The notes under the pieces were generated by a model, which saw only the letters and a program-made list of their open reading frames with translations, ran no database searches and was not told the DNA's origin. Of a DNA stretch of 64,000 bases, positions 2,299 to 51,454 are shown one piece after another. The stretch is from contig CM126220.1 in assembly GCA_052327205.1 (NCBI GenBank), positions 13,206,001 through 13,270,000 on the forward strand, written 5' to 3'. The first letter of the stretch is position 1. Each line of letters opens with the position of its first letter. This stretch comes from Somniosus microcephalus. Lineage: Eukaryota. The translations under genes and the position numbers were made by a program.

Positions 2299-2396
2299 CT
2301 GAAGAAGGGTTTCGACCTGAAACGTTGACTCTATTTCTCTCTCCACGGATGTTGCCTGGCCTGCTGAGTTTTTCCAGCGTTTTCTGTTGTTATTTC
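2299..2396 (+). mobile_element. Penelope-like terminal repeat half-copy with hammerhead-like core
   Basis: CTGAAGA-A-GGGT-TTCG-ACCT-GAAA-CGTT-GACT followed by the family body ctctctccacggatgttgcctggcctgctgagtttttccagc. Confidence 0.65.
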
Positions 2397-3023
2397 TAGT
2401 TTTTTTTAACCCTGTTTGCACTGTGGAAAAAAAACAATCCCGTGGCAAAATTGACAAGATGCTTCCTTTCTGTCACGGGCACAACCCGAGATCAATTAAT
2501 GGCTAATTGCTCTTTCTGTCAAACGTTTCTCTAAATTGGCAGCTGCTTGGCCCCTTTCCTTAGTGAGAAGTAACATCAGCTCACAATCAAGAGAAATCAG
2601 CAGGAAATAACTGTTGTTCTTTCTCATTTTTTAAAAAACGTTTTTGTTTAAAAAAAATTGCTCTCTTATGAATTGGTATTTTATACATAGCTGGACACGG
2701 GGAGTGCGATGGACATGCTAGGTGCAAGCCTTTATTTATGTATATATGACTTCTTGCAGGCAACTCCAACTCCAGTTGTTGTGGAGAGCTTCGCTGCTTT
2801 AGCGAGAACTACAAACATCTGCATTTAGTTGGCATGCTGGGAACATGATACTGACTTGCATACAGTGTGAAAGAAACTGATTGTGGGATGCAGTTATCAT
2901 TAAAACAACGTTATGTCAGGAATAATAGTGCTCTAATGAAAAGATTTCTGACTTAAGGAGGGGGGGGGCGGGAATTACAAGCATGAATGAGTCTTTTTTA
3001 CACACGACAGGAACAATATTACA

Positions 3024-3152
3024 GCAGCAAAATACTGCGGATGCTGGAAATCCGAAATAACAACAGAAAACGCTGGAAAAACTCAGCAGGCCAGGCAACA
3101 TCCGTGGAGAGCGAGACAGTTAACGTTTCGGGTCGAAGGCCTTCCGTCAGAA
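3024..3152 (-). mobile_element. Penelope-like terminal repeat half-copy
   Basis: Reverse complement of the same family body; degenerate core CTGACGG...CCCGAAACGTTAAC. Confidence 0.65.
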
Positions 3153-3514
3153 TAATATTACTGTGCATTTACACTTTACACTTTACACCGGCTCTTCCAA
3201 TCCTAATCTTTCTTCCGGATTTTGATACCAGTTTGCAGTCTTTTGATTTTCGGACACTTTGACATGACAAATATTAGAAAGATGCCCGTAACCATACTGT
3301 GTGCACTGCGGAAAACCGTGTTTAGACCTGAGGAACTGGGATCTGCAGTTTGGGTGAGAATCCCCTTAACTTCAGGTGTTTCGCTTCCAACATTCTGGGC
3401 GATCTGTATTCAGATCACTAGTGAGCGTCACTGTGTGCACACCAAGTGTAAACTACTTTATTGCAAAATTAAAGTTGGTGTTTTAATGCACCCCTTTACC
3501 GCAGGCAATTGTAA

Positions 3515-3700
3515 ACAGAATTCACCGCACAGAAACCGGCCATTCGGCCCAACTGGTTTGTGCTGTTGTTCATGCTCCACACGAGCCTCCTCCCACCCCT
3601 GTTTATCGAACCCTGTCAGCACATCAAACATTCCTGTCTTCCTCATGTATTTATCTAGCTTCCCCTTAAAGACATCTATGCCATTCGCCTCAACTACTAA
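3515..3700 (-). mobile_element. CR1 LINE 3' tail fragment
   Basis: VVEANGIDVFKGKLDKYMR plus ggccattcggccc terminal hairpin. Confidence 0.7.
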
Positions 3701-4019
3701 AGAGTGATTCCGCCTCCTGAAGATTTTAATTGGCTCCATCCTATAGTTCCCCACCCCCGGTCAGCTTTTGCTATCCAACTATGAAAGCCTCAGCAAATCT
3801 GTCCTATTTCTGCTTAAAATTCTTTTCTGTTGGTTTGGGCTTGCAGGTTTAGAAAAAGGCTGTTTTAGCGCGTTTTCCTCGTTGGTAGAAAGATCCAAAA
3901 TCAGAACAACAAGATTTGTTCCTATTAACAAGTTAAGATGTATGCAAATTATTGGGCCGATCACTGTCCGTACAGATGTGTAAAAGGCAGGTTAACGATG
4001 CAATGTCATTCACCTCAAT

Positions 4020-4317
4020 AGGCCTCTGAGTGAGAAGGTTCTGGGGTTTAAGCCCCACTCCCGAGACTCCAACACAAAATCCAGGCCGACACCTCACTGC
4101 GCTAAACTCAGGTCCTGTCTGCCTTCTCCGGTGGAACTAAAAGATCCCACAGTTCTATTCCAAGAAGAGCCGAGGAATTCTCCCAGGTGTCCTGGCCAAT
4201 ATTTATCACTCAAAACAAAACACCTTAAAAAGATGATCTCATTGCTGTTTGTTTGTGGGAGCTTGCTGTGCGCACTCACTGACCGCTGCGTGTCCCTCAT
4301 TACAACAGTGAACACAT
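4020..4317 (+). mobile_element. Deu-type SINE, internally deleted (left arm of an inverted duplication)
   Basis: ctctgagtgagaaggttctggggtttaagccccactcc head remnant and tgtttgtgggagcttgctgtgcgca 3' block. Confidence 0.7.
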
Positions 4318-4435
4318 TTCCCACTCTATAGGTGGCTGGGAGGCTCCATGGCGGTCCAGCAAGACAAAAGGTGGACAGCCTTGCCTTCGATTACAACTTA
4401 GTTTGTTATTCACAAAGTTACAGTAACAGAGCACG

Positions 4436-4449: not shown

Positions 4450-5481
4450 GCGTTGGTAATTTTCTAAGAGCCCGCAGTGGTTTAGGTATCTACACATCAT
4501 CGATCTCCTACAGCACAGGTTGTGGTATATTAATACATGTTTCATTTAGAATGTGTCAAGGAGCGGCAACAATTGAGATGCAACTAGGCGTTGTACACCT
4601 TCAAAGAGTGACCGCCCCTATCTTTGATCTGTACCTGGAACATGGTTTATTTCTAGATTTGATCTCAAACTTCCTCCCTCCTTTTATTCCCCAGAGATTG
4701 GATCCGATCTGAAGTTAATTTCAGTGAATCGCCGAGTTCTGTTATAGCTGATCGGAACTCGCTCTATTCTTAAGTGGGCCGCACCTTAAGTTTCAAATAA
4801 TCTCAGGTGCTCTTGTGAAACAACCGTATTGGGGGGAAATGCCCAATCTTTGAAGATCTTGCAGCGGGAGCACTTCGACTTCAACACTAAATCTAAACTC
4901 TGCTCAACTTCCAACTCTCAACAAAAAAAACCCACCAAATACAGCCTCGGCCAAAACCAGGCCACAGAAACATTGTTATTCTCAGTAGCTGGTGTAAGCG
5001 ATGTCACCTCAACTGATTAAAACACTTGGTGAACACAACAGTCAGTGAAACTCACAGATTGTGTGGCCTTTGAGCCCTGCCCTCGGTACTAAATGTTCTA
5101 TTACTGCTTTGTGAAAAACAAAAAAAAATGAACGGAATTCCCAGAGAGATTGATAATTGTTATCGGATTGGATGTTAATGGATTTATTGTATTGAAGTCC
5201 CATATTAGATTTCCGGCAGCTGGTTTGTCTCTTGTAGTTTGCAACATTCCGTTTCCCCGGCCCTCTCACAGACTCTGTATAGTGGTGCACCACAGACCCT
5301 CCATTGCCAATTTTCTAATGAACTTGTTCACATTTGTTTTAAAATGTAATGTTATTGTAACATCTGGTTAGTAATGGCGCCAGTTGCTGAACTGGGTCAT
5401 TGAACGAAATACTTGCATCTATAGAGCGCCTTTCAGGAACTCTCTCCCAAAGTGCTTTACAACCAATTAGGTCCTTTTTGA

Positions 5482-6051
5482 TAGCAAAATACTGCAGATG
5501 CTGGAAATCCGAAATAACAACAGAAAATGCTGGAAAAACTCAGCAGGCCAGGCAACATCCGTGGAGAGAGAAATAGAGTCAACATTTCAGGTCCTGTAGA
5601 AGGGGTTCGGCCTGAAACGGGTTTCGACCTGAAACGTTGATTCTGTTTCTCTCTCCACGGATGTTGCCTGGCCTGCTGAGTTTTTCCAGCATTTTCTGTT
5701 GTTATTTCGGATTTCCAGCATCCGCAGTATTTTGCTATCGTACTAGTGTTTGGTTCACTGCCACACCTCTTCTAGGTATGCCTACCTTGAAGAAGTTCTG
5801 CTCTTCTCTTCGACGGGATCTCCGTTTGGCTCTTCAACCTTGTTCATCTTCATTGCTTTCAGTTTCCCTTCTCGTGTTTGATCAGGTATCTGCCAAGACT
5901 GGGTTTCACAGCCACATCATTTTCCTCAGCAACTGTCTCTGGTTCCGAGGTCCTGACGAAGGGTCTTCGACCTGAGACGTTGACTCTGTTTCTCTCTCCA
6001 CGGATGTTGTCTGGCCTGCTGAGTTTTTCCAGCATTTTCTGTTGTTATTTC
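5482..6051 (+). mobile_element. Penelope-like element remnant: inverted terminal repeat, terminal repeat with ORF start, and a truncated tandem copy
   Basis: Palindrome 5481-5738; ATG at 5778 opens MPTLKKF...FHSHIIFLSNCL; second hammerhead-like core at 5953; flanked by ggtcctttt(t)ga direct repeats. Confidence 0.65.
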
Positions 6052-6063
6052 GGTCCTTTTGAC

Positions 6064-6350
6064 ATGTGTTCACTGTTGTAATGTGGGAAACCCAGCAGTC
6101 AGTGTGCGCACAGCAAGCTGCCACAAACAGCGATGACATCATCTTTTTAAGGTGTTGTTTGGGTGATAATTATTAGCCGGGACACCTGGGAGAATTCCAC
6201 GGCTCTTTGTGGAATAGAACTGTGGGATCTTTTAGTTCCACCGGACAGGGCAGACAGGACCTCAGTTCAGCGCAGTGAGGTGTTGGCCTGGATTTTGTGT
6301 TGGAGTCTCGGGAGTGGGGCTTGAACCCCAGAACCTTCTCACTCAGAGGC
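6064..6350 (-). mobile_element. Deu-type SINE, internally deleted (right arm of the inverted duplication; its tail lies at 5405-5481)
   Basis: Reverse complement of 4020-4317; the tail acttgcatctatagagcgcc is separated from it by the Penelope-like insertion. Confidence 0.7.
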
Positions 6351-6586
6351 CTATTGAGGCAAATGACATTGAATCGTTAACCTGCCTTATACACATCTGT
6401 AAGGACAGTGATCTGCCCAGAGGGACCTCCCATCCTCAGTAAAGATACAGCCCGAGTTCAGGGAACATCAGACTGGAAGGACGAGGCAAAGTGCCTTCAA
6501 GGTGCTTGGTTGTATTGGCCTTGCCGAATTGGAAAGGCTACCTCTTAATTGTACCAGTGTGGTGTCCGAGAAAATGTTGAGGCTTA

Positions 6587-7031
6587 AAGAAAAAAAAGAC
6601 TTGTATTTCTATAGCGCCTTTCACAACATCAGGAAGTCCCAAAGTGCTTTACAGCCAATGATGTACTTTTTGAAGGGTGGTCACTGTTGTAATGTGGGAA
6701 ACGCGGCAGCCAATTTGCGCACAGCAAGCTCCCACAAACAGCAATGTGATAATGACCAGATTTTAGTGTTGTAGGTTGAAGGATAAATATTATCCAGGCC
6801 GTCGGGGAGAACTCCCCTGTTCTTCTTTGAAATAGTGCCATGGGATCTTTTAAGTTCCCCTAAGAGGGAAGAAATTTTATCCGAAAGACAGCACCTCGGA
6901 CAGTGCAGCACTCCCTCAGCGCTGCACTGGAGTGTCAGCCTGGATCGTTGTGCTCAAGTCTCTGGAGTGGGACTATGAACCCACAACCTCCTGACTCAGG
7001 CGAAGAGTGCTACCCACTGAGCCACGGCTGA
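6587..7031 (-). mobile_element. Near full-length tRNA-derived Deu-domain SINE (SacSINE1/AmnSINE1-like)
   Basis: A box TGGCTCAGTGG, B box GGTTCATAGTCC, central gagggagtgctgcactgtccgaggtgc domain and tail aaaggcgctatagaaatacaagtc. Confidence 0.8.
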
Positions 7032-8794
7032 CTAGATTATTACTCTAGATGTGATGGAATTAGTGAAGTGTTGCCCATCAACTAGTCATTGCTAAATACT
7101 GTTGGTATAATAGCCATCACCGTTTTATGTCCATACTTCTGAAATATCGATTTAAAAAATAACGATTGAAGTAATTTAGATCACAGATGTTGAAGGATAC
7201 AGCAACTGGCCCACAGCAGTGAGCGATGGGACAACCTGCCTGTGGGATTAGTCGGACAAGCGCCATTGTGTTGTGTGAATGTTTATAATTGTGACGTAAT
7301 TCCACGTTATTTCACTAAAGATTTAAAAAGCGAGAGCAAAATCGTGCTAGAAAACGCCTCGTGGCAACAGGAGACGCAAATAAATGCAAGAGGGTAAAAT
7401 TGGGAGGTGGTCAGGGATTATTTTATCCTCTTGAAAATAGTGATATAATTAAAATGTTTTCTAAGCAACCGCACTTAAACAAAAGGCAATTTATAAGCTT
7501 TCTTCTCGAGCACAGCTAGGGCTGAGGTTGTTGATTAAAATCTTGCTGTAGTTTCAGTATTGAAGGTCGCGGCCACGCCTAAGGCAATGATATGTCGCTT
7601 GCGTTTAATTTATTGAGCTCTTACCTATTCTAATTACTTTTAGTTCATATCTTCGAGCGGTAAAGCGAGGTTCAAAGAGGCCAACAACAAAAAAAAACAG
7701 GGCAAGCGCAATTGGAAAACAATTATATTGGGGAGCGAATGCCAGCACTTGCCTTTTTAACAGGTCTGACAATGACTTTGCAAAGTGACAGCCAAATTTC
7801 ACTATTGTAAATCTGCATTATAAACTTCCCAACACATCATTCTAAAAGCACTGTTACAAGTAAAATGTATTATCAAAAATCTTCTAAGTATGGATTGAAT
7901 TATTTCAAAATTCTCAATTATCCAATGTTCTCTGAGACATTAATATGCATAAATTATTGTAAGAATCGCCGTATTTACTATCAGAGCTTTCTTTTATTTG
8001 GGTCGTTGGATCGGCGAAATACCTACAGCTTTCCAACCAGTGAATGTAATTCAAAGCAGAATTTTGTCTTTCGGTACAGTGAGATTAAATGGGTGGTTGG
8101 AACAGATATCATTTTTATCTGAATTACCAAAGATAAGCCCCCACGCCGTTTATAAAACTTTGCACAGTTCGATAATAATGGTACCCGGACTTCAAGGTGC
8201 AATTGATAAAATCTCACTTACTCTTGGTTGATTTTTTTAACACACACATCTCTCAGCCACACCTTGCTTTAGCGGTGATTGTTTTTGAACCCAGTGCTAT
8301 CTACGTTCAATGTGTTTTTGTCCCTCTTACAGGCTGTGTTCGGACCGGCACAGCTGAGAAATGAAAAGGAGAACAAACACAGCTGGACTTCAGGAGCGGA
8401 AGAGTTTATGCCGCTCAATGTGACCATCTTCCTGATGGGAGAAAATTGATTCCAACTCCATCTCACGCACAGGGAGCCCGATCCCAATCCCGGCTTTCCG
8501 TCTGCCTTTCCCTTTACAGGAAGGAGCTGGCAGGAGGACAAGAATTTTCCCACTATTCATCAGAACAGGGGGAGGGGGAGGGGGGGATGGAGAAGGCAGG
8601 AGCGGTGCTAAAGTTGCCTCAGCGCCTCACGGTGCAAGAACCCGCAGGAGGAGCAGGTCACCTTACACTTACTGTAAAAACAATCTTCGTTAGACAATGA
8701 AATCAGCTTTAATTTAAGAGATTGCAACTCAATAGCTCAGTAATAGTTTCCCGTTTCCATCATGGTACAGTTTCTTTATTTTTTCTCTCTTTAC

Positions 8795-9202: not shown

Positions 9203-9753
9203 GTCAGTCTTTGGGAAAGTTTTTTTTAGAATGTAGGGGAAGAAAATCCAGATACTGCTCCACGTTTGTGTGCAGACAATGATTAATGCGGACAGGAGGG
9301 AAGATACTGCACATTGTATAATATATTTCCATTTCTCCTCGCCTTCCTCCCACAGTCTACAGAGTCTGAACCCAAACGTGGCTCCACAGATCGCAACTAC
9401 CCGACCTTGCGATCTACTCTTACCCCCTCAGTAATGTCCTGTATCATTGGCCCTTCACCAAGGCTGGGCGTATATTTAGTTTAAAGTGTTTGGATTGCAA
9501 CCAGTTTCAGATGCCCCGGGTATATCCTCGATTTTAAACAGCGAAAGGTGCGGATTTGCCTCTCTCACAGTCAAAGTCATGTTTGCAAACAGGGATCCGG
9601 TGTACGGCCCCGGGTTCGGGGCGATTTTGAAGACGGAATCACTGAATCGGACAGCAAACAGAATCTTTAAAATATGAATTAATCAAGGTCACATCACTGG
9701 CGATATTAAGTCGAAAGACTGAAGTATTTTTCATATCGATATCTTCAATAAGG

Positions 9754-9880
9754 CGAAAGGTCATCGACCTGAAACGTTAACTCTGTTTCTCTCTCCACAG
9801 ACGCTGCCTGACCTGTTGAGTATTCCCAGCATTTTCTGTTTATATTTCAGATTTCCAGCATCACAGTATTTTGTTTTTGT
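9754..9880 (+). mobile_element. Penelope-like terminal repeat half-copy (second subfamily)
   Basis: gaaaggtcatcgacctgaaacgttaactctg...gacgctgcctgacctgttgagtattcccagc. Confidence 0.6.
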
Positions 9881-10094
9881 CTTCAATACAGGCCTCTGAA
9901 AGGTGCAGAACGGAGACAGCGTGGACAGCACTGGGAGTCCTGTCTATATAATCCCACACACCAATAAACAGGCGGGTCCTGGGCTTGGAATTCAGTGTGA
10001 ATGCTTTTTTTAAAAAAAACATTTAAATAACTCTTTAAGTGTATGTGACAGTGTTCAATAATTAATATGAAAATATCTTCTATTCAGATGTATT

Positions 10095-13130: not shown

Positions 13131-13333
13131 CACTAGTACGATAGCAAAATACTGCAGATGCTGGAAATCCGAATTAACAACAGAAAATGCTGGAAAAACT
13201 CAGCAGGCCAGGCAACATCCGTGGAGAGAGAAACAGAGTCAACCTTTCGACCTTGAAACGTCGACTCTGTTTCTCTCTCCACGGATGTTGCCTGGCCTGC
13301 TGAGTTTTTCCAGCATTTTCTGTTGTTAATTCG
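13131..13333. mobile_element. Penelope-like palindromic repeat (71-bp perfect stem)
   Basis: 13170-13240 is the exact reverse complement of 13263-13333. Confidence 0.8.
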
Positions 13334-15252: not shown

Positions 15253-16169
15253 TGCTTCGTTTTAATTTTTAAGGATTGAAAAGCAGAACTGCACTAAACA
15301 TAATATTTATTTCTGCGAGATTATAATAGCCTATGATTACATTTTCACTAAATTATTCCGTGTCATTAAGTACTAGTCTAAGGGATTTTTTTTAAATGAT
15401 GGAGCAATTCCATTGAATTCATTTCAGTTCTGGTGCCGTGTTCACACTCGGCAATGATTATGTCTTTTCGCTTTTGCCCTGACTGACTTGCTATAAATTT
15501 GCAGCATTTTCTGTTTTTAATCCATTAGATCTAACGCCATTAACAGTTATAATTTCTAACAATTTCCCAGCTCACATTTAAGTAGCCAGACCCTGCACAT
15601 ATTGCATTACATGAAACATGGGGTTGGTAAAATAAATAGTTATACGGTTGTTTTATGTTTTATAATCACAATGGAAGTCAGATAGGATTTTTAGCTGAAT
15701 TGTTTTAATGGGCTTGAAGTATCTGTGCCATTTTCAAGTATCTCTGGGTCAGAGGCAGAGCCCTGGTATGACTTGCTACAGATAGTACAATACTGTGTGT
15801 CTATATCTCGAGCAACCTTTTCCAATGGGTTCAATTTACTGATTCCAGCGTTAATCCTGGGAATCTTTTTGGGCTATGTTTCTAAGGTCGGCTCTCCTGG
15901 ACGTTATCTCCTAACCCCGGCGTTCAAAGCGGATGTCTCCTGTGGAAAGATAACGGCGCCTAACATTGTGCAGACTGTGAGTGGAACGAATAGAGAGGTG
16001 TGTGTGTGTGTGTGTGTGTTGGGGGGGGGGGGGGCGGTGGATGGAGGGGGAGCGGCACTTCAAGCGAGTTTATTTAGTTTCACGGATCCTGATGTCCCCA
16101 TTTTTTTTGTATTAAAAGGTAGGTACAAATAGACTCAAACCAGAAAGAGGTATTTGCTCTCTGACAGGG

Positions 16170-18263: not shown

Positions 18264-18628
18264 TTATCTGTGCCCATAGTCATAATTAGTGGGCGCTGCA
18301 CTGGCAGGGTACATGTTTGCAGTTGGGTTCATGTGGTGGTAGCCATGGCTCGCTATGCCGGGCAGCGGGTAAGGGCTGGGCCGGGCTTTGGCACCGATGT
18401 AAGCATCGTGGTAGGAGCGGTACTTGTAGGTGTGGTGGAGGCTGTCCGGCGTCTGCGTGTGGGGGTCCAGTCGCAGTTCGTGAGGAGGGCTGGGCCGGGT
18501 GAGCGGGTGCAGTCCGCCGGGGAGAGCCGGGCTCAGCACCCGGGACATGAGCTGCTGCTGGTGTGGGTGTTCCCCGTGCATGGCTGTCCGGTTAGGATCC
18601 CGGTCATAGTCACCTCTGGCGTCTCCAT
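18264..18628 (-). CDS. TBX1: TBX1 terminal coding exon
   Basis: Acceptor ttatttgcag|AT; DGDARGDYDRDP...SRVLSPAL...LHHTYKY...AKARPSPYPLP...YDYGHR, TAA stop at 18266-18264; resembles the vertebrate TBX1C C-terminus. Confidence 0.93.
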
Positions 18629-18702
18629 CTGCAAATAAAACGTGCCAAGGTTTAGAGATGCACACACTGAATTTCGACTCACAGGACAACAACTTATCAA
18701 AT

Positions 18703-19197
18703 CCTAGGAGCAGGAGTAGGCCATTCTGCCCCTTGAGCCTGTTCCACCATTCAATGAGATCAAGGCTGATCTGCGACCTAACTCCACATACATTGAAACA
18801 TAGAAGATAGGAGCAGGAGTAGGCCATTCGGCCCCTCGAGCCTGCTCCGCCATTCAATGAGATCATGGCTGATCATACCCGCCACTGGCCCATATTCTTT
18901 AATATCTTTGTTTAACAAAAATCTATCAATCTCAGATTTAAAATTAACAATTGATCTAGCATTTGCAGACGAGAGTTCCAAAAGTCTACCACCCTTTGTG
19001 TGTAGAAGTGTTTCCTAATTTCATTCCTGAAAGGTCTGGCTCTAATTTTTAGACTATGCCCCCTAGTCCTAGACTCACCAACCAGCAGAAATAGTTTCTC
19101 TCTATCTACCCTATCTGTTCCCCTTAATATCCTGAAAAACTTCGATCAAATCACCCCTTAACCTTCTAAATTCCAGGGAATGCCACCCTAGTTTGTG
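18703..19197 (-). mobile_element. CR1 LINE 3' fragment with a second CR1 tail in tandem
   Basis: Two taggagcaggagtaggccatt...ggctgatc tails (about 18705 and 18808); FKSEIDRFL ORF2 remnant. Confidence 0.8.
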
Positions 19198-19204
19198 TAT
19201 ATCA

Positions 19205-19570
19205 TGAATTATCAAATTATGAAGGGGTTTGATAGGGTAGACTTGGAAAAGAAGTTTCCATTTGTGGGGAGTCCAAAACTAGGGGCTATAAATAATAGTC
19301 ACTAATAAATCCAATAAGGAATTCAGGAGAAACATCTTTACCGAGAGAGTGGTCAGCATGTGGAACTCGCTACCACAGGGAGTGGTTGAAGCGAATGGCA
19401 TTGATGCATTTAAAGGCGAAGCTAGTTAAACACATGAAGGAGAAAGGAACAGAAGGATATGTGGATAGGGTGTGATGAAGTGAGGTGGGAGGAGGCTCGT
19501 GTGGGTCATAAACACCTGCATAGCCCGATTGGGCCGAATGGCCTGACTCTGTGCTGTAAATTCTATGTAA
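19205..19570 (+). mobile_element. CR1 LINE 3' fragment
   Basis: atgaaggggtttgatagggtagac...aactaggggc...ggccgaatggcctgactctgtgctgtaa. Confidence 0.8.
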
Positions 19571-20514
19571 CCCGCTCCTGTCCTGAACAGTTGGGCAAAA
19601 GATTGGGAATGCTTTCCACACTGTCCCTCGCTTAATATATTGTGATGTAGGCTTAAATGCAAAGCAAAGTTAACACAGAATAGACTTAGCTATAATGCAC
19701 GAACCCTGCATCGCTGGGTCAATGCTGAGACAGCCGACCGTCTGAAAGTTTGCTTCAATAAATCATGCACGTTTAAAAAAAAATCTAAAAACAACCATTA
19801 CTTCTGTACGGCCAGTGTAAAAAGAAATGTAAATGCTTTTTAAATGTGAAGATAATTAATGATGGGACGGGGCTTTCAATGTGGCTCATTGTTGCGGTTG
19901 CTCGGTGGATTGACAAGGTTCCGATCCAGCAGAGCGAACTCAGCCTCTAACCCTTCCTGAGGTGAATAATACAAGGAGCCTATCTATGGGAGCGGGGTGA
20001 AAGCAGGGTATGTGTTGCATTGGCGCCGTATCTGTCCGGCACGCGCCCTGTTGTTGGTCAATACAAGTAGAGGCTGGGACCGCAAAAACCTTTCTCCCTG
20101 TGGTTTTTACTGCAACGAAAAGGCGCAAACAAAGGATCCGAAGAATTTTGCGATAGAATAATTTAGTTAAACTCGTCTTAACTCGAGGACTCCTTACAAT
20201 CTCTCGGGGGGAGTGGAAGGTTGAGATATGCCGCTATGTAATCCTTTAGGTACAAAGGGTATCAATTATTTGACCATTGCATCATTTCTTTTTTGAATGC
20301 TGTGCTCTGGCAAAAAGTTTATTTCCTTTTTAATGTATGATTAGATATAACATTGCTTTGAAGTGGATGTAGGGTGTAAAAGAAAAAAGCTGTTATTGGA
20401 GTAACATCATTCACATGGGCGCCATCAAAAGATCGTGGAGAATCCGGAATTTGCTTTCGCTGCTCTGGTCAATTAGTAAAGAAGATAAAGAAATTATTAT
20501 ATATATAAATGAAA

Positions 20515-20960
20515 ACACTTGCATTTCTATAGCGCCTTTCACGATCTCAGGTCATCCCAAAGCGCTGTACAGCCAATGAAGTACTTTTTGAAGGCTAGTC
20601 ACTGCTGTAATGTAGGAAATGCGGCAGCCAATTTGCGCACAGCAAGCTCCCACAAACAGCAACGTGATGACCGATCAGATAATCTGTTTTTTCAGCGATG
20701 TTGGTTGAGGGATAAATATAGGACCAGGACACCCAGGGAGAACTCCCCTGCTCTTCTTCGAAATAGTGCCAGGGGATCTTTTACAACCACCTGGCAGAGC
20801 AGCTGGTTTAACGTCTCATCCAAAAGACAGCCCCTCCGACAGTGCAGCACTCCCTCAGCACTGCACTGGAGTGTCAGCCTAGATTTTTATGCTCAAGTCT
20901 CTGGAGTGAGACTTGAACCCACAACCTTCAGACTCAGAGGCGAGAGAGTGCGACCACTCT
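20515..20960 (-). mobile_element. Near full-length Deu-domain SINE inside the last TBX1 intron
   Basis: Same head, central domain and tail as 6587-7031; B box GGTTCAAGTCT. Confidence 0.8.
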
Positions 20961-21299
20961 TGTTGAGTAGCGTATTCACTAAAGTGTGTGAGCAATTTAA
21001 TTTGGGCAATCAGAAGTGGCCGTAGAACGGTCCACAGTGGATGTCGACACTTTCGGGTTTTTAGTTTGGCATGTATAATACAGATCTACACATTGTACTT
21101 AGAAGCAGGGTTGTTAAAAGTTATTCCATTATTCCTGTAGCCTTGAATTGAAAATTACTCTTTAATTTTTAGAACCCACTTCACCTTGCATTCTTTAGTC
21201 CAGATGCATTCTCTAAATTCACACTGAACAAGCCAATTGGAGGGGCTAGGAGTCCTTCAAAAATCAGGAGGGAAACGTTATATTTAATTCACATTAAAC

Positions 21300-21520: not shown

Positions 21521-21649
21521 ATATATTCTTATATTTTAAATATATGCATTTAAAGAGTGCCCGAAGTTAGTTTGCCTGAAGGAAACTGCCGTGCTTGGCG
21601 GTGTTGCCTGGTGTATTTGAGACACAGATCGAGGGCCGCGACACTCTAC

Positions 21650-33277: not shown

Positions 33278-33672
33278 CTTCCCGCTTTGGTGACTATCAT
33301 CTCGGTCCCGAGTTGGTTAAACTCGTCCCACAGCGCTTTCATCTCCAGCTGCACCGTGATGTTGGCCACTTTCGGGTTCTTCTTCACCGGCGCTTTGTTG
33401 GACGCGCTGACCGCTGCGCAGTTGGAAGGGCCGGTGTCGGCCTCCGAGCTCGGTGCCGAGCCGCTACTGCCGAAGCTGCTGTAGGTGTGCTGGGCGGCCG
33501 GGCAAGGCTCGTAGTGCGCCTCGTGGCTGTAGGGACCCGGCTCCCCGGGAGAAGGCGAGAGGTGGTAGCCGCCGGATGAGTTCAAACTACTAATGCTGCT
33601 GGCAGTGAAAGCTGCAACATCACAGAAATGAGAGAGTTGCGTTAACCAGGGGCTGGAGATCGCCGAGATCAT
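33278..33672 (-). CDS. TBX1: TBX1 coding exon (MISA start; internal acceptor at 33611 for the upstream-exon isoform)
   Basis: [26 protein letters not shown]...[36 protein letters not shown]; donor AG|gtaagg; internal acceptor gttgcag|CT. Confidence 0.96.
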
Positions 33673-34583
33673 TTCCCAATTTTATTCCTGGCTTTCTTTA
33701 AAAAAAAATTAAATCTTTTTTTTCCCCCCGTTGCTATTTCTTGCTCTCTCTCTCCCTCCCTCGTCCTTCCTTTCTTTCTGTGTCCTTCTGTGCCTCTCCT
33801 CGGCTCTTCAGTGCGAGAGACGAACCCAATGTCACCGTACTCTGCGCCGCGCTACTGCACTCTGGCAACACTCTTCTTGAGAGTTCTTATCTTTCGCGGA
33901 GGGCCTCCCCTCTCCATGAAACCGGTTCCTTTTTTTTCTCTCTATTTAGATAAGGACCTACAGGTAATGTGGATTTCGTCGCATTGGGACGAAGTCCTGA
34001 TGGTCTGATTGACAGAGCAGTGCGCCGGTTTTTTTTTAATGGTCTTTCTGACACCCATTACTTAAAGTGGGGGCTGGGAGAGAGAGAGGGGAGGGGGAGG
34101 TCGCTTACACACACAAAAAAAACCATTTAAACAATGGCGATCCACGTTTACATTGGAAGCCCATTCAGACACTAACAAACACGGATCCAGCATCAATAAA
34201 TAAATGACATCAGGCTGATTTATCAGATGAAACCCCAAACTCCACACATTTAAAACCAGCCGCGGGTTTGGGGGCGCATTTATCATTTTTTTGGTGGGGA
34301 AGGGGCGGGGGGGGGGGGGGACGTTTCCGATACATTTCCCACTGAACATTAAAACAAAAATGACACACACCAGATCCTACTTTCATATATCGCCTAATCG
34401 GTGAATCGATAGCGATTCGCAGCGCTGAGGTTTGGAGCCCCTAGTGTACGCGGCGAACACGTATTTAAATTGCCTGACCTGTGTGTGAGTGGGATTCATC
34501 CTTAATCTACCTATCTGCATTTATATAGCTTGGAAAAAGAAAAAGAAAAAGAAAAAGAAAAAAGCACTTCGGCCGCCACCTAC

Positions 34584-34764
34584 CTTCCATGTCTCTTGTC
34601 ACGGTGCTAAAATGCATCCTACTGCAGGTTAGACTGGGATCGAAGTGCTTGCCGAGGGCAGGACTCTGCAGAATCGCTTCGTTTCCTGGTTGCGGGCCCG
34701 CTGAAATCAGAGAGGCAATACTGAAAGCATTCGCCTTGCGAGAGAGAGCACTGCTTTCGTCCAT
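34584..34764 (-). CDS. TBX1: TBX1 alternative upstream coding exon (MDESS...FSIASLIS...MHFSTVTRDME)
   Basis: Contains MHFSTVTRDME (ATG 34617), the classic human TBX1 N-terminus; phase-1 donor G|gtaggt joins 33611 to give ...DMEAFTASS; in-frame upstream ATG at 34764. Confidence 0.85.
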
Positions 34765-35089
34765 AGGAGAGGAATCTAAAAGCGCTCGAATTTCCCCCTT
34801 CCTTCCTTCTTTCCTCCCCTTACAACACTGCAACCAAACAGAAGAGATCCGAGTTTAACTTTGTGTTTAAGCCACGGATCTCTCAGATTTAAAAAAAAAG
34901 TTACATGGAATGGGGCCTCCGGGTGTTCAATGTCCTACTGTTTTTTTTCATTTTCCCAGGCGAGTTTTTTTTTGGGTGCAAATAGGCGCCGTTATTACCT
35001 CGAGTATGTTGGTCGATTCATTCATTTAAAAGCTGTGTTCATTTTTTTTGCGGGGGTGGGAAAAAAAGTGTGTGTTTGAGTAGCTCCAT

Positions 35090-35460: not shown

Positions 35461-36855
35461 AATTTGCAATGTTTTAACAGTGTAGAGGGTGGGTTGCTTC
35501 GCCTCTCTAATAAAAACGCCAAAACAAATGAATACATTCAGGGTAGCACCTATTAAAAATGCTATTTATGTGCAGCCGGGCGCCGTTCCTGCACACTTGA
35601 GATCAGTTTTAGGATAGGCGATTGTACAATAGCAGACTAACTAATACATATACTTATAATAATAATGTGATACTAATACATTTAGGATATGAAACGTGTC
35701 AAGGCAATGGTTTAGCTACCCATGTATTTAAAAAAAAAAAATCAACGTTAACAAAAAGGAGTATCTTAACTCCAACATTTCAGTGCCGGAATGTGAGGCA
35801 GTTTTTTGCACAGCTCTCACCAAGATCTGCGGTTTCCTGATAGGGTATAAGTTCAATCCCTAGCAATAACAAGGACGGTGTGTGCATGCAGCACTGGGGG
35901 AGAGTACACGTCAGGACTCGATCCGAGCAGTTTCACTTCACCTGCCTGCTCACATGCATCTCTCTCTCTCTCTCCCTCTCCCATTACAGTCAATGCCTAC
36001 ACTAGGTCCCAATTCTGATCAATGCTTCCTTCGGGCGATTTTAGCCCTCCCGGTTAAGATCACGATTGCTTTGCAGTCTTTCTATTACTTACAGTAAAGA
36101 GAGGTGGGGGGTTTGAGGGGAGACATTCCCTTCACAGTGCATCATAACTGTGTATGTCTATCACCGTCAACAATCAACCCGATATTAACAGCGGTATTAA
36201 TATTCGAGATAATCATCAAATTTAATTAAAATAGCGGAGCTGCCAGATTTCGCTGCCTGATGCGCCCAGTGTTATGTTGCTTTTTCTCACTATTTGTACT
36301 GTTTACACTTCCGCAGTAGGTGAATTTCAAACCGATATACTTGTGTTATTATCAAATTAACACGGTCTAAAAATAAGTGTCAATCACCGAGTTGGTTTTT
36401 TTTTGTTATGCAAGTCAGTTGTTTGACTCCGTTTCAATCTGTAAATGTAAAACTAAAATCTTTCAGCCCTGCCCAGAGAAAAGCGACCTCCACGGCGGCA
36501 CCTCGACTTCCTTTTCTGATGGAAAGATATTTAAAGATATTTTAATCATTTATTTTTCAGAGAAGCTAGGCTGGCAGAATTGAGGGAGGCGCAGAACTGG
36601 CTCCCAGACTAATAGATGCTATCTTGTCGCCTGCCTATGCGGTGGAAATGAACACGGTTGACTAAACGGGAAAAAAATGTTAATATCTGAACAAGAGCAA
36701 CTTATATTTACATAGCGTCTTTAACATAATAAAATCAGTCCACTGCTAATCCCAGTGCCATGCTCTCTTCTCATAGCCCACCCGCAAGCTTTAATATCTG
36801 ACCATATGTTTTACATTCACGATGAAATAACTCATTTAGTTTTGTGCTAATACGA

Positions 36856-36950
36856 TAGAAGGGTTTCGACCCGAACCGTTGACTCTATTTCTCTCTCCAC
36901 GGATGTTGCCTGGCCTGCTGAGTTTTTCCAGCATTTTCTGTTGTTATTTA
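36856..36950 (+). mobile_element. Penelope-like terminal repeat half-copy
   Basis: agaagggtttcgacccgaaccgttgactct plus family body. Confidence 0.65.
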
Positions 36951-40450: not shown

Positions 40451-41996
40451 GTCTTTCCAGATTTTGTAAGCAACTTGCTGCTCGCCTTCCTTTGACACTG
40501 GGTTATCCGCACCAGGTGTTCGCGTTTACCTTGGATCCAATCGCCCTAACAATTTATGCCTTAAATGTTATTTTTTTCCACCCTCCCAAGGGCCATCTGT
40601 TTTTCTCTCTTTTATGAAACCCGAATGTACAGATAGTCGACTGACAGGATGAAATATGAATCGACGCGACAAGTACTGAAAGCGTCAAATTCCGCACTGT
40701 TACTTATTTAAAACAAGCCGCAAAAGGCGAGACCGCCTACAGATGTTTTAAAGACGGAAGTGTACAGCGAGGAGAGAGAGAGAGAGAGTTAGGAAAAGTA
40801 AAATAAATGACATGGAACTGCGCTTGCTCCTACAGGCCGCCGGGAACGTGGCAATGAGTGTCCCAACATATATAGTTAGTAACAGTCCGTTTACTCTTTA
40901 TTATCAGTCACATTTGCAGTCGCGTATTTAGCAAAATGGAGAATTCGACATCCAACTTGGGCTTTAAAAAAAAATTGGACTGGCGGATTTTAAAAGAGAG
41001 GACAAGAGGCCAAGGGAACGAACAAAAAAAAGTTGAAATAGTATTAATACGCATTTTTAAACCGTTTTCTCAAATTGCCAGTCAATACCCGCTACATACG
41101 CCCTGGGTGATCTTTGCATCAAGGAAGAAAAATGGCTCTGCAAGTTTGGTAAGAGTGTTTCCCATGTCTATCTGTGTCCTGACTCTTCTACACACCAAAT
41201 GTTCCCTTTACAGCCAGGCAGAGAATTGCAACTGATTTTGCTGATCATTACACGAACATTTGTGCAATTGCATTTTTTAAACTAGAGGGGACTATAAAGG
41301 ATTGTAAAGTGCCGTTCTTCACCAGGATATGTCATGAACTGCTCATTATAGAAGCTTGATGAGCTACATATATATATATCGATTTTATGCCATTGATTTT
41401 TCTACCTAACGTCCTTAATATCGCTGACTACTTCTCACAACTCTCCACTTGATAGTCCATGAAACGTTTACATTGCGAATCCTGGGGCTTGGGATTGTGT
41501 GCTTGGGGCATATTTAAATGTACACTTGGTCTTATCAACAACAACAACTTGCATTTATATAGCGCCTTTAACGTAGTAAAACGTCCCAAGGCGCTAAATG
41601 CATGTAATTTATCCTGACACTAAATGCATTATGGCAGATGTAAGGTGGTCAAAGGCGACCTGATAACAATCTAACACATGTAGAGCGGAGCGATAGACAG
41701 CGCTGACAGGTAGTGCAGCTGATGTGTTTACCTATTAAAGAAAGGTGCAATTTCCCTTCCCTTAAAAGAGAGGGGGGGGGGGAATCAAGATTTAAAAATA
41801 ACTTTCCAGGCACAGGAATCATCCGACTAGATCATTTACCTCACTTTATGAACTGCAGTGTGAAATCGGAAGAGTTCCGATTCCAGGTGTCTGGCGGGCA
41901 TGGCATCGGTGTTAAGGGATATTTAACATAGATGGGAAACAGTAAAACAAATTATTTTAAAAACTGCTCTTTTAATGAAGTCTTTCCATTAACACA

Positions 41997-42216
41997 ATAG
42001 CAAAATACTGCGGATACTGGAAATCTGAAATAACAACAGAAAAGGCTGGAAACACTCAGCAGGTCAGGCAGCATCGGTGGAGAGAGAAACAGCGTTTCAA
42101 GCTTCTATAATGAGCTCTTCATGAAACACCCTGTTGAAGAAACGTTAGCTCTGTTTCTCTCTCCACGGATGCTGCCTGACCTGCTGAGTGTTTCCAGCCT
42201 TTTCTGTTGTTATTTC
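41997..42216. mobile_element. Penelope-like palindromic repeat (second subfamily)
   Basis: Inverted arms share the variant aaggctggaaacactcagcaggtcaggcagcatc. Confidence 0.7.
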
Positions 42217-42302
42217 TTTCCATGTACAGGCGTGTAGAGAAACAGCGAGGTGGGGGTGTTAGAATGCAAAAGAGAATCAGGATCGCGTGATGTGCCTTTA
42301 TT

Positions 42303-42644
42303 AAAAGAAAGACCTGCATTTATAGAGCGCCTTTCACGACCATCGGACGTCTCAACGCACTTTACAGCCAATGAAGTACTTTTATTGAAGTGGAGTCAAT
42401 GTGGGAAACGTGGCAGACAATTTGCGCACAGCAAGCTCCCACAAACAGCAATGTGATAATGACCGGATAATCTGCTTTTAGTGATGTTGATTGAGGGATA
42501 AATATTGGCCAAGGACACCGGGGAGAACTCCCGCTGCTCTTCTTCGAAATAGTGCCCTGGGATCGTTTACGTCCACCTGAGAGAGCAGACAGGGCCTCGG
42601 TTTAACGTCTCACCCAAAAAACGGCACCTCCGACAGTGCAGCAC
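42303..42644 (-). mobile_element. Deu-domain SINE, 5'-truncated
   Basis: Tail at 42305-42340 and central gcacctccgacagtgcagcac at 42625-42644. Confidence 0.8.
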
Positions 42645-43076: not shown

Positions 43077-43163
43077 AACAACAGAAAACGCTGCAAACAC
43101 TCAGAGCGGGTCAGGCAGCATCCGCGGAGAGACGTTTCAGGTCGATGACCCTTCGTCAGAACT
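43077..43163 (-). mobile_element. Penelope-like terminal repeat half-copy with intact hammerhead core nucleotides
   Basis: Minus strand AGTT-CTGACGA-A-GGGTC-ATC-GACCT-GAAA-CG-TC. Confidence 0.65.
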
Positions 43164-46100
43164 ACCATTATATATCTATTTCGCTGACCATCGCGTCAAC
43201 GAAAAGCGGTAACGATGCCGATTGCGCGGTTGTCTATTTTTATTTCTGCTGAAGTAGCTTCCCACACAATATCAGAGCCGCTGACTGCATTGTGCACAAT
43301 CCGTGCAAATAACACAATCAAATAGCGTCGATTCGAACATTGCCCACTCACAGTCAACAAGTGGTGGATGGGCACGAAATCAATATTGTGGGGTTTCAAG
43401 GCGCAATAATGAATTTGGGGCCGACTACGATTAATTACATTTTTAAAAATGTTTACCATTATATCTATTCAAAATAACACCTCCATGGTTGGTTTGTTTC
43501 GAAATCTCTCGGTGTGTGTTTCGTCGTTGGCTCCGCAGTTAGACAAAACAAGATGCCTCACATGCGTTCATTTACTATCACTAACAACAACAAAAAGCCC
43601 GCCCACATCTTCTGTGTGTCAGATGCTAAATATCTGCCATGCTTCTTTGGAAATTGTCGAATCCCCTCTCCCACAATTTGCAAATTTCCAAGCCCGTTTC
43701 AAACACAAGGTTCAGCTTATACCAACCCGGAAAGAAGACCCGAAAACCATTCCACACGAACAAGGCGCCTACAACCCAGGGAGCTGAAATATTATCACCA
43801 AACATGGAAACTTTCATAACGGATACATTACGATATTATTTGTAATCATAGAATCCTACAGCGCAGAAGGAGGCCATTTGGCCCGTCGGGTGTGTGCCTG
43901 CCTCGCAATAACGCTATTAAAGTTAGAATCATACCGATGTTTTGCTTCAGTTGAAAGCTCACTGGAATTTAATTTTGTTGTAAAGACTGATAGTAGGGCA
44001 AGCGCTCCACTTTTTTTTGATCATAAAGACAGGGGCGTTCATAACAATTATCACAGAGACTTCCTGTAACCAGCACAATAATTCATTGTCTAGGATTTAT
44101 TTTTGTTATAAACGTAGCGCCGCCACCCGTCTTTGTTTTCGGTCCCATTGTGTGTCTGTTGAAGATGGCTGGGTTAACAAATACCCTTTTCTGTGGCGTG
44201 TAGCCCTTGCCATTGAGTCGCACTTCCTAATTAAGCAGGTGTGTAGATACACGCGATTTGCTACAGTTAATGTGCCTTTCATTAAGTGTTTGTTGTGCCT
44301 TAACATTTTAATAGTCTAATCAACAGCACCACTCCAAACTTTTCTTTACCATTCACGTGTCCACTATCAAGAGTGATTCATGAGCTTTTGAGTTTCCTGA
44401 AGAGACTGATAGTTAAAGCAGATAACGAGCATCAGCAATCACCCGAAAGGCGACCTGACCTAAAATAAACTCAATTTAACTCCACAAGTTTGGCATAAAG
44501 AAGACAAACACGAGTGGTGGGAGGGGGCGGTGAATTAGTCCGGTCAAATGAATTCGCCTAATTGGCAATCTGATTAAGTACCGATCTGTTGATGCGATAT
44601 TTCGATCAGGGTGGAAGAGAAGGTGAGACAGAATCAAAGTTAATGTGAGTGCATTGCCCAGCGTGCAATTGTGGCTTTTAAAAGCCAACTAGTCGCTAAA
44701 TCAACAGAAGGTAGACAATTGGGAAAAAAAGCTTTGCTGCGGTAAATCTTTCCTCGCCCGAATTTACCAGGCAGATCGTTCCATCTCACGTACCAGGTTA
44801 GGATGTTAATCCTTCGCGCCTGCTTTCAGAGTACAAAAGAACGGTGGAATCTTTTTAAGAGAACTTCTGGGGGGAAATGGAAGGGATCCTTTATGGCCAT
44901 TCAGAGTGTCTTTCAGCATCAAGTCACCTGGAAATATAAATGACCACTAGAAAAGGTTATTGGTGGTCCTTGAGAGTTTAAGATTTCCAGAAGCTTCCAT
45001 AAGCAAACTTGAAACAAACGAATGGTAGATTTTTCTGTATGTGCAGTATTCTATCTGTCAGTGAGTGTGTATTTATATATCCAGCAAATATCAACTGAGA
45101 ACTGTTAACGATCTCTACGTCTCCACATTGGAATAATTTATGTTACATTGCCTCGTTCTTTACTGTATTCTTTACTTTAATGTGATTATTTAAGAGTATT
45201 TTTATATTTGCAGTTAATATTTCACACGCTGCGTTGTGTTAGGCGCCGTTGCTCCGTTCCACATCATACCTGCCAAAAATAACGAAATAGGGGAATCCAA
45301 TGCTTTAACCTTCTGATTGTATTTGTAATTAAGGGCCATTTTCTTTGTAATGCCTGCACACATCAACATGCAATCGCAAGCAAGAATACACTGGCACCAT
45401 ATAAATAATTATTCTCTAAGGAATCCATCGATGATAACTAAATTTAAAAAATCAATGTTTAACCTCTGAAGTCGATAGTTATGCATAATTAACTGTAAGT
45501 ATGTGTGTGTGAGAGAGATTTTGTGTTTTACTAGATTATTCCAGAACCGCAATGCGAAACTGGTTGCTGACTCTGTGTTATCCTGCATAAATTAATGGTT
45601 AACTAGGTACTAAATCTTAAATAAACAAGGTGCGATTATAAAAAATATCAAGTTGTCCTAACTATTAACAGTATATAGTGTTGGAAAAATAACTTTCGAA
45701 TTTCTTTCAAAATGCTTCATTGTATCCAATTAATACACGCGGACTTAACTCTATACAAAATTTAATGCAGCATCTATTAATATGACTGCTGAAAACAGAA
45801 TTGTATTTGCTAACGTGCTACTTGTAAATTAATATTTGTTTTGGAAGAAGCCATGTATTTTCGCAGCTTTCTGGCTCCCAATTTGTAAGCCCAGTTTTCA
45901 GTGCCACCTCTCATTATTCCACATTTACTAGAGCAAACAGCTACTTTAAAGCCTCATTTCTTTATTCTTGTCCTAAAACTAAAGACAAATTATTAACGGC
46001 GCAAAACGTGGCTTCAACAGGAACATTGCAGAATCTCCACTAAGAAAAGCATTTTCCAGATATACGAAGATATTTTAAAAAATGTTTGATAATGCGGTTT

Positions 46101-48827: not shown

Positions 48828-49202
48828 ACCATTTATATAGGAATTAACGGAGTAAAACATCCCAAGGTGGTTCACATGAGCATAATCAGACAAAATTGAC
48901 ACCGACCCAAAGAAGGAGACGTTAGGACAGGTGACCAAAAGTTTATTCAAAGAGGTAGGTTTTAAGGCGGATCTTAAATGAGGAAAGAACCGAGCATTGA
49001 GGGAGAGCTGAGGGCCTGGACGGCTGAAGAGGCAGCAGCCAGCGGAGGGCTGAAAGAAATGGGGGATGCACAAGAGGTCAGAATTGGAACAAGCAGAGAT
49101 CTCGGAGGGTTGTATGGCTGGAAGAGGTCACAGAGATAAGGATCGGCCAGGCTATGGAGGGATTTGAACAGGAGGATGAGAAGTTTAAAATCGATGCGTT
49201 GT
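48828..49202 (-). mobile_element. L2 LINE 3' fragment
   Basis: QRIDFKLLILLFKSLHSLADPYLCDLFQPYNPPRSL, typical of the L2 ORF2 C-terminus. Confidence 0.8.
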
Positions 49203-49807
49203 GTAGTCTGGAGTAGGGGTGTGTTGATCCCCACTGCTCCTTTTTTTTTATCCTTTTGACTTGAGTGCCGAATTAGGTCAATAGACAACCTCCATTTTCA
49301 CTGCGGCCAGCAAAGGTCCAAAGTGGAACGAGCATCTCATAGACCCGTTAATATTGGACGGCCAATGTGTTAACTGGTGAACTCAGCTGACTGGACCAGT
49401 AGACATTTCCGACAAGCCCCCTTACACTCCAACTCCTACCAACTACTTCACTTGGATTTTCACGGATGGTTGGTCGCATTTGACTTGGAGTCTTCAGTTT
49501 ATTAAAAGAAAATTACGGTGATCATCACTTCCTGGTGGAATGTATTTAAAATGTGGTGATATAAACATCCGATTAACACAAAGGCCTCATTATCAGCGAT
49601 GGATTTCCCCCTGTTTTCAGTGTTAGTTGGGAGCAGGTTGGCGAGAAACACCAAAGGATGGGAAGTTCTTGCCTGTAAGCCACACATCTCCCTGGTGCGT
49701 CCCTTACAACCAATACACGGCCCTTCAGCTCAATAAAAGGAGCATTGCTTTAATTGGGAGCGAATTTTCTAATTGACCCACATTTGGATTATTCGAGAAA
49801 CTTGGAT

Positions 49808-50230
49808 CTTCTCCCCTCTGAGTCAGAAGGTTGTAGGTTCAAGTCCCGCTCCAGAGATTTGAGCCTATATTCTAGGCTGACACTCCAGTGCAGTACTGAT
49901 GGAGTGCTGCACTGTCCGAGGTGCCGTCTTTAGGATAAAATGCTAAACCGAGGTCCCGTCTGCCCTCTTAGGTGAACACAAGAGATCCAATTGCATTATT
50001 TCGAAGCAGAGCTGGGGGTGTTCTCTCCGGTGTCATGGCCAATATTTATCCCTCAACTAACATCACTAAATAAAACAGAGTATCTAGTTATTAGGGCATT
50101 GCTGTGCGTGGGAGCTTGTTATGCACAGATTGGCTGCTGCGTTTCCTACATGACAACAGTGACTACACTTCAAAAATACTTTGGGACTCCTGAGGTCGCG
50201 AAAGGCGCTATATAAATGCAAGTCTTTCTG
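49808..50230 (+). mobile_element. Deu-domain SINE
   Basis: B box GGTTCAAGTCC, gtgcagtactgatggagtgctgcactgtccgaggtgccgtc, tail aaaggcgctatataaatgcaagtc. Confidence 0.8.
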
Positions 50231-51266
50231 TCTTTGTTTGGTTCTTTCTTTCAAAAAACAAATGCTTGGACTCTACTTTTCAATGGCCCAGAATGATTAA
50301 TCAGTGTTTTCAGAAGAATTTGATCCCTGTCCCAACTCACATCTCCTACAAAGTACTGATATTAACCGTCATGTTCTACATCAGCAAAGACACCCCAGCA
50401 ACACTTACTAGTTTATCCACAATCCAAGATTTTGGAACCTGTTATTGTGGATCACTCATGGTGATAATACTCCCAAAGTATAAAAAAAATACAACTAGTT
50501 ATACCATAAGCTTTATTGTAAATGAAAGATTAAGCAAATCAAAGTGAAATTCCTCAAATAGGTTTTGATTTGAGGAATGAACTCGTGTTCCTTCAGTACC
50601 AGAGCATGCTTCTTGCGCAGTGCAGGGATAGACTGAGCAGCTGATTAAAATATTTTTATTGTCATCACTTCCCCGGGTCTCTAATCATCAGCATTTCACA
50701 ATTGCTGGACCCGGATACTGATCGCTAACCTCTAGCAGACTGATCGTTCCACGCTTGCTGTATCTTTCATCGCCCAGCTTGTTGATACAGTAGCGAAAAC
50801 CGGCGATAAGGAATAATAATAAACATCAATCAATTCACAACCTCCACCTTTATCATTTGATATGTATAAATTTTGAGACCTTTCGATTTCCTAACCGTGC
50901 CCCACCGCCTTGAGGGCGTGTTATCTGTGTGCATTACACGTGCAACATTGGAGAAAACCCGACAGACCAGGCTCCTCAAAGTCATGTTAAAGACACTGCA
51001 CAGCTCTATTTATCATTGGAAAGGAATACAGAGCCGTGCATTCATATAGCGCCTTATCAGGCCCCCAAACACCTGTTCACATCAATTGAGAATCGATGGT
51101 TAGTGATTGCAACTCAAACTGGCTGTTGAGGAAGGATTGTTACAACAACAGAAAATCATTCAGAAAAATCATTCAAATTTTGGAAAGAAATAACGGGCAT
51201 GAAACACATCAATGAGCTTGTTACCCATTACTGAGTGCAATGCGTGTATTCCTTAGAGTTGAGAGG

Positions 51267-51449
51267 CGAAATAACAACAGAAGACGCTGGAAAAACTCAG
51301 CAGGCCAGGCAACATCCGTGGAGGAAAAGGGTTTTGTCCCGAAACATTGACTCTATTTCTCTCTCCACGGATGTTGCCTGGCCTGCTGAGTTTTTCCAGC
51401 ATTTTCTGTTGTTATTTCGGATTTCCAGCATCCGCAGTATTTTGCTATC
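51267..51449. mobile_element. Penelope-like palindromic repeat
   Basis: cgaaataacaacagaagacgctgg...ccgtggag mirrored by ctccacgg...ttctgttgttatttcg. Confidence 0.75.
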
Positions 51450-51454
51450 TTAAA

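Follow-up and report, generated by a model that had tools for sequence, protein, structure and literature searches.

Stubs of a probable Penelope-like element with a predicted minimal hammerhead motif in a 64-kb stretch of Somniosus microcephalus DNA

Analysis of a 64,000-nucleotide stretch of the Somniosus microcephalus genome (assembly GCA_052327205.1, contig CM126220.1, positions 13,206,001 to 13,270,000; hereafter the window, in whose coordinates all positions are given) revealed a T-box gene and a family of short dispersed repeats. The T-box exons, spread over the minus strand between about 34.8 and 18.3 kb, have TBX1 as their best match among PDB structures. The repeats are very probably retrotransposed stubs of the pseudo-long terminal repeats (pLTRs) of an endonuclease-bearing Penelope-like element (PLE), likely of the Neptune type, whose 5' end is a predicted minimal type I hammerhead. 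An earlier reading made from the letters of the window (the sequence-only reading) had listed about 11 repeat loci, and comparison of the window with itself confirmed that each of them holds the repeat. Anchoring on a conserved block resolved the family into 16 arms. These occupy 12 loci and represent 11 insertions, the region from about 5479 to 6052 being a single event. An extra trace of 22 nt was detected at 15498-15519 (E 0.002). The stubs occupy about 3% of the window.

Target site duplications (TSDs) of 9-17 bp were identified at 9 of the 11 insertions; seven of the nine are 67-83% AT and two are 44-50% AT. Among the single arms, the short arm at 2298-2396 (+) has a core that is intact from C3 (2299), lacks the 5' strand of stem I and is flanked by a 12-bp TSD (2286-2297 / 2396-2407), while the long arm with tail at 3023-3149 (-), damaged in core and stem II, is flanked by a 12-bp TSD with one mismatch (3011-3022 / 3150-3161). 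The arm at 9751-9879 (+) is long, of the older AACT type, with a decayed first box and a 9-bp TSD (9742-9750 / 9880-9888). A short arm at 28803-28899 (-) stands in sense in a TBX1 intron and carries a 14-bp TSD (28789-28802 / 28899-28912). The short arm within 36851-36945 (+), bounded by a 17-bp TSD, follows an 8-nt inverted piece of tail, has lost the first box and has a damaged GAAA. By eye, the 8 nt in question (36851-36858) are the reverse complement of the tail end, resembling a head-to-head pair of which one side has shrunk to 8 nt. An older arm at 43077-43163 (-) retains an AGTT head and an intact core and stem II, with a 13-nt deletion that removes H17 and stem I', and an old fragment at 59831-59907 (+) is devoid of the hammerhead. 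An 18-bp direct repeat, also seen by eye, starts where the 43 kb arm has its 5' edge (43163-43180 and 43455-43472, about 290 bp apart) and may mark a later insertion or duplication.

Four insertions are arranged head-to-head, with arms joined inside or just before the hammerhead and with the tail or long end on one side only. The pairs at 13134-13333 (junction inside the hammerhead, 12-bp TSD) and 41990-42214 (hammerhead largely lost, 9-bp TSD) each join a long minus-strand arm to a short plus-strand arm, while the pair at 51267-51455 joins a short minus-strand arm to a long plus-strand arm and has a 9-bp TSD (51258-51266 / 51456-51464). The composite insertion at about 5479-6052, bounded by a TSD of about 12 bp (5467-5478 / 6049-6060), interrupts a copy of another repeat, of a 350-450 bp family. 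Its left end is an inverted long arm (5479-5593, -), followed by a direct arm (5594-5777, +) with a run-on of about 200 bp. This direct arm consists of a damaged, partly duplicated hammerhead, the tail and a leader up to an ATG at 5778, which the predicted cut precedes by 139 nt. A PLE open reading frame (ORF) begins at this ATG and is broken off after 57 codons (5778-5948, +), which code for its N-terminal domain, and a short direct arm with head GGTC, core CTGACGA and GAAA changed to GAGA completes the insertion (5949-6052, +).

The 3' ends of the arms are bimodal: eight arms end 65-79 nt and seven end 96-112 nt past the predicted cut, and one of the 16 arms runs on into the ORF. The two ends are about 35 nt apart and define an optional tail of that length. 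Towards the 5' side, 12 of the 16 arms span the predicted cut by at least 5 nt. All five single arms that are bounded by TSDs have their start in the interval from 3 nt ahead of C3 to 6 nt past it, and none begins further upstream; the arms in inverted pairs stop at varied points within the motif, from C3+6 to C3+43.

The motif was searched for with a descriptor of the minimal hammerhead built from PMC4209133, comprising the core, an optional extra base, stem II, GAAA, the 15.2/16.2 pairing and UH, with U3-A8 allowed. Without stem I the descriptor was satisfied by 3 of the 16 arms (2299, 28895 and 43159), against a mean of 0.1 in 100 resampled windows, and with a stem I of at least 3 bp by one (28895, -), the resampled mean being 0.0. 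Three passing arms where 0.1 is expected indicate that the motif exceeds chance, though nearly all copies are damaged. Rfam at its gathering thresholds gave no match in the window, which is no evidence against the motif because the motif has no helix III. An extra nucleotide between A9 and 10.1 is present in all three passing arms, and most arms that retain the site show the palindromic ACGT followed by T. Stem I has 4 bp in the 28.8 kb arm and 4 bp, one of them G-U, in the 5953 arm; both arms in the window with a GTC head carry a GACT tail. The 10.1-11.1 pair is G-C in three arms, G-U in four and A-U in two, so that pairing is kept while its identity varies. Judged by its sequence, the 5' end of the repeat is a minimal type I hammerhead motif of a PLE, predicted to cleave.

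Most of what the sequence-only reading had said of the motif was upheld. Both the core and the stem I pairing are present, the arms at 2299 and 43159 retain CUGANGA and GAAA unchanged, and the AGTC/GACT pairing at 28864-28899 is exact, with the qualification that the TSD begins with the fourth base of that stem, at 28899. The statement that no copy is fully intact had to be revised, since 28895 (-) passes the whole descriptor once the known U3-A8 core is allowed. The bases ahead of the core at 2299 and 3149 belong to target duplications and not to the element, target DNA having taken the place of the stem I head at 2299, and the GUC triplet at 43 kb is a product of the 13-nt deletion that also removed stem I', the family triplet being GTT. 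Inverted pairs, target duplications, the tail and the ORF start are features beyond that reading.

The 57-codon piece is 80% identical to a protein of Heterodontus francisci (horn shark). An exhaustive protein search with H. francisci protein P0001 gave 41 matches, and a word-index comparison of P0001 with longer proteins scored none of 1323 candidates. Among eight matched proteins that were looked up five carry shark source names, and Pfam assigned no family to 11 of the 12 proteins scanned. P0038, of 924 aa, has a reverse transcriptase (RT) domain, RVT_1, above the Pfam cut-off (E 1e-9) and the motifs DKG, YIDD and CX4CX2C; its first domain is 44% identical to the window piece over 57 residues (E 5e-7). 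Comparison of P0038 with the window by tblastn returned the N-terminal piece only, weak when taken alone (E 0.14). The earlier expectation that the repeat is linked to an ORF with RT and GIY-YIG domains thus finds support in one copy that runs into a 57-codon ORF start and in a relative, P0038, bearing RT and a GIY-YIG motif; together with the core and the stem I pairing, the ORF start supports the identification as a Penelope terminal repeat with a predicted ribozyme. Sequence features suggest that the element is likely an endonuclease-bearing PLE of the Neptune type, an assignment drawn from a distant relative, since the CX4CX2C linker was seen in P0038 only, and this linker also occurs in Nematis. 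The shark proteins P0001, P0004 and P0009, named 'uncharacterized' or 'mucin-2-like', start with or contain the Penelope N-terminal domain and probably represent genes annotated over the remains of transposons.

Contigs from public sequencing runs of nine organisms include part of the stretch, among the 20 of 24 entries listed. Four runs (X1, X2, X12 and X15, with 4,674 to 74,805 contigs per run) were aligned to 5600-6060. Contig depth, which is not a copy number, drops more than 20-fold past the tail. Piles of loose ends occur at both 3' ends, 5707/5708 and 5736-5742, in X1, X2 and X15, while X12 lists the long end only, and X12 contigs carry the ORF onward past the break in the window at 5946/5948. 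The CTGA(T/C)GA box is present in the loose-end lines of X1 and X12. Loose-end lines before the core end in AGTT in X1, X2 and X12 (agreement 0.41-0.55), and the first base of stem I' is A in 75%, 83% and 86% of the depth in these three runs and in 37% in X15; these shares come from 40 of 97 difference rows and can be skewed by reads that fit two places. The AGTT lines together with A at the first stem I' base indicate that AGTT/AACT is the main form in X1, X2 and X12. Scans for the motif pattern gave no match in viral, metagenome and prokaryotic genome contigs.

We propose that the stubs are short cDNAs of the element's RNA, primed from nicks in the target. The GIY-YIG endonuclease would nick mostly AT-rich DNA with a stagger of 9-17 nt, and RT would then start at either of two internal sites in the RNA leader, giving the short end or the long end with its tail; the tail would thus reflect internal starts. 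RT would copy only 100-150 nt, to about the 5' edge of the hammerhead, and the single arms that stop at the outer edge of the motif suggest that copying ends there; this edge would likely be the 5' end of the RNA, or a fold that halts RT. Priming at one nick would leave a single arm and priming at both a head-to-head pair. The template RNA was likely uncut, because the predicted cut falls inside 12 of the 16 arms. The hammerhead of a living element would likely trim tandem transcripts slowly, helped by a partner motif or by the element's protein, while the scattered stubs are likely neutral and mostly dead relics. Work on an anole PLE in vitro has described two internal positions at which RT begins and which delimit the tail, uncut RNA as the main substrate, a hammerhead that cleaves only with protein, and cleavage that is unnecessary for insertion (PMC11167929). 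Transcription starts inside pLTRs have also been published (PMC6765202, PMC8557442).

Several points weigh against the interpretation of the repeats as stubs of a hammerhead-bearing PLE formed in this way, or qualify the evidence for it. The TSDs, each of which outscores 99% of 388 random interval pairs, were searched for in windows positioned after inspection by eye, and none was found for the insertions at 43077 and 59831 (2 of 11). No RT or endonuclease sequence was found in the 64-kb window. The GIY-YIG match of P0038 is weak, at 20.8 bits and below the Pfam cut-off of 22.6, and P0038 is a distant full-length relative, not the master copy of this shark. A profile was built from the 27 of the 41 matches that share the N-terminal domain, with P0001 and 13 others, mostly matching unrelated parts of P0001, excluded; in a six-frame search of the window its sole match was the 57-codon piece (E 2e-17, next best 0.17), a score that is not independent because the members had been found via the window's own fragment. 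The possible AGTT/AACT covariation suggested by the sequence-only reading is backed by the commonest head and tail in X1, X2 and X12; the linkage of head to tail, seen there on no single molecule, is taken from two window arms and from majority lines. In a plurality of contigs from other organisms (agreement 0.41-0.55) the element sequence extends at least about 10-14 nt upstream of C3, so that the 5' edge is not one fixed base. The RT start sites of anole Poseidon_Ac lie within the ORF, while both lie before the ATG here. Folding with ViennaRNA gave -11.7 kcal/mol for a double hammerhead, whereas two monomers reach -14.0 and the minimum of the dimer is -20.5, and dimer folding as a double hammerhead is accordingly not favoured in the model.

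As the cause of the short length we lean slightly towards run-off at the 5' end of the RNA. The same PLE would also yield short copies if RT stalled at the folded hammerhead or if long transcripts were heavily truncated at their 5' ends, a tentative explanation that we consider less probable than its opposite. It would suit the variable stops of inverted-pair arms inside the motif, the formation of stems I and II with predicted probabilities of 0.8-0.93, and the element sequence upstream of the core in other organisms. On the contrary, the five TSD-bounded single arms all stop within 9 nt at the outer edge of the motif and none further upstream, and the published transcription starts inside pLTRs (PMC6765202, PMC8557442) also argue for run-off.

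It is very unlikely that the repeats form an independent non-autonomous retrozyme family spreading via small circular RNAs, with the stretch of about 343 nt at 5.6-6.0 kb as its monomer. Animal non-LTR retrozymes resemble the family in being short repeats with type I hammerheads, and the two direct hammerhead remnants, 343 nt apart, fall within their size range (PMC7229834). However, the spacer between the remnants is the start of a PLE ORF broken after codon 57, it occurs once in the window, and both hammerheads of the stretch are damaged. The X12 contigs extend the ORF past 5946/5948, and the junction 5948-5953 was bridged by none of the 32 contig pieces listed, most pieces being unlisted. 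Known retrozymes have canonical hammerheads, consist of non-coding monomers in tandem and form circular RNAs (PMC7229834), whereas the family in the window is dispersed, of the minimal type and linked to a PLE ORF.

The copy at 28.8 kb is the one arm that satisfies the full descriptor. The TBX1 gene (18264-34854, -) shows exon motifs at about 34764, 33348, 27085, 24559-24131, 21998 and 18284, and the copy sits in sense, as had been predicted, in the intron whose flanking exons are those at about 33.3 kb and about 27.1 kb. Its hammerhead (28899-28864) has a U3-A8 core, a 4-bp stem I, a 4-bp stem II, GAAA, the ACGU palindrome and a GUU triplet, with the predicted cut between 28868 and 28867. The minimum-energy fold of the arm consists of stems I and II (-7.0 kcal/mol in ViennaRNA), with the pair probabilities given above. 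Compared with the majority of the window the arm has no difference over 72 nt downstream and four structure-compatible differences in the motif. Young arms (n=9) differ at 13 of 612 non-CpG and 3 of 36 CpG positions, and from these rates we estimated, post hoc, a chance of roughly 1% for the paired U3-A8 change among about six arms. Natural examples of U3-A8 cores exist and show activity in vitro (PMC3088659), and the variant is known in minimal hammerheads of PLEs (PMC4209133).

These properties, the sense orientation and the passing of the descriptor included, would fit retention by the host of a functional U3-A8 ribozyme within the TBX1 pre-mRNA, a reading to which we attach very little probability. 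It is a young copy whose TSD is perfect, and it shows no sign of conservation; two of its four changes are of the CpG type, and the 5' junctions of other arms are mutation-rich too. Minimal hammerhead monomers did not cleave in vitro (PMC4209133) and dimers, according to a review, cleaved weakly; an intact partner on that strand is missing from the window, and folding as a dimer is disfavoured. The same changes would arise with no host role from a variant master element, and such an element or error-prone 5' joining accounts for them at least as well as host selection. The arm at 51324-51345 and that at 28.8 kb have the TTTG loop and the A-run before stem II in common, which hints weakly at an A8 subfamily. 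It is likewise very improbable that the intronic hammerhead pairs through ACGU with other nuclear Penelope hammerhead RNAs, or is folded by the element's protein, and so cuts the TBX1 pre-mRNA; if it did, shark developmental genes would bear transposon-gated self-cleavage sites.

That the hammerhead likeness arose by chance from stitching decayed copies together is extremely improbable: although only one of the 16 arms passes the full descriptor, and that with a variant core, and Rfam gave no match, three single arms pass core and stem II where 0.1 is expected, the stem pairs occur in alternative forms, and the extra base, the palindrome and the U-rich leader, all outside the core, agree with the published consensus (PMC4209133). 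A tRNA-headed short interspersed element (SINE) was rejected, ARAGORN having found no tRNA.

Minimal hammerheads were described in 2014 in the terminal repeats of PLEs, mostly as solo motifs and sometimes on opposite strands (PMC4209133). The window family agrees with them in CUGANGA with one extra base, stems of 4-5 bp, GAAA, the palindromic 15.2/16.2 positions, the lack of a loop 3, UH, the U-rich leader, and the mostly solo copies with some on opposite strands. It differs in the 10.1-11.1 pair, G-C, G-U or A-U here and a conserved G10.1-C11.1 there, and in the length of stem II, which reaches 7-8 bp in schistosome motifs and is shorter here (PMC4209133). No cartilaginous fish was present among the examined rows of Fig. 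S3 and Table S1 of that paper, and no PLE hammerhead of sharks was found in the open literature, subscription journals, Dfam and Repbase being outside the search.

Hallmarks described for PLEs include a truncated copy in inverted orientation and, at one end, an optional tail of 30-40 bp (PMC8557442, PMC3846280). Neptune and Nematis, endonuclease-bearing PLE clades with a CX2-5CxxC linker, share with the window family the inverted 5'-truncated copy, the optional tail, a similar TSD length and an ORF whose N-terminus is related to a protein with RT, linker and GIY-YIG (PMC8557442, PMC3846280), while the window holds terminal stubs and 57 codons only. Poseidon_Ac of the green anole likewise has a hammerhead at the pLTR-ORF junction, two 3' ends one tail apart, mostly AT-rich targets and an uncut template; its cut lies 26 nt after the start codon (PMC11167929), compared with 139 nt before the ATG here.

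The window also contains repeats of other kinds. The second abundant repeat, the 350-450 bp family interrupted by the composite insertion, is 70-90% alike among copies at 6057-6420, 6575-7042, 20499-20955, 26227-26411, 42302-42644, 49810-50235, 54231-55079 and 61949-62158, and appears to resemble the shark Deu-domain SINE. Two of its copies, at 3953-4320 and 6061-6419, lie in inverted orientation 1.9 kb apart and are 90% alike, far closer to each other than to the rest. An RT-like ORF fragment and 3' ends of long interspersed elements (LINEs) or SINEs, unrelated to the Penelope ORF, were seen at 145-624 (-), 1271-1842, 18687-19115 and 54424-54904, presumably a LINE of the CR1/L2 type or its SINE partner. 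A satellite of 13-14 bp C-rich units occupies 55760-56600, and a 33-bp tandem repeat of about six copies lies at 56842-57086.

As host biology the stubs are probably neutral repeat debris. For the element family, the finding would extend the minimal hammerheads of PLEs to cartilaginous fish, and the fixed stub ends would give genomic support, in a second PLE clade, to the internal RT initiation and uncut template shown earlier in vitro for one lizard element. The stub ends also predict where the RNA of the element starts, and stubs in such abundance make the role of the hammerhead in PLEs testable.

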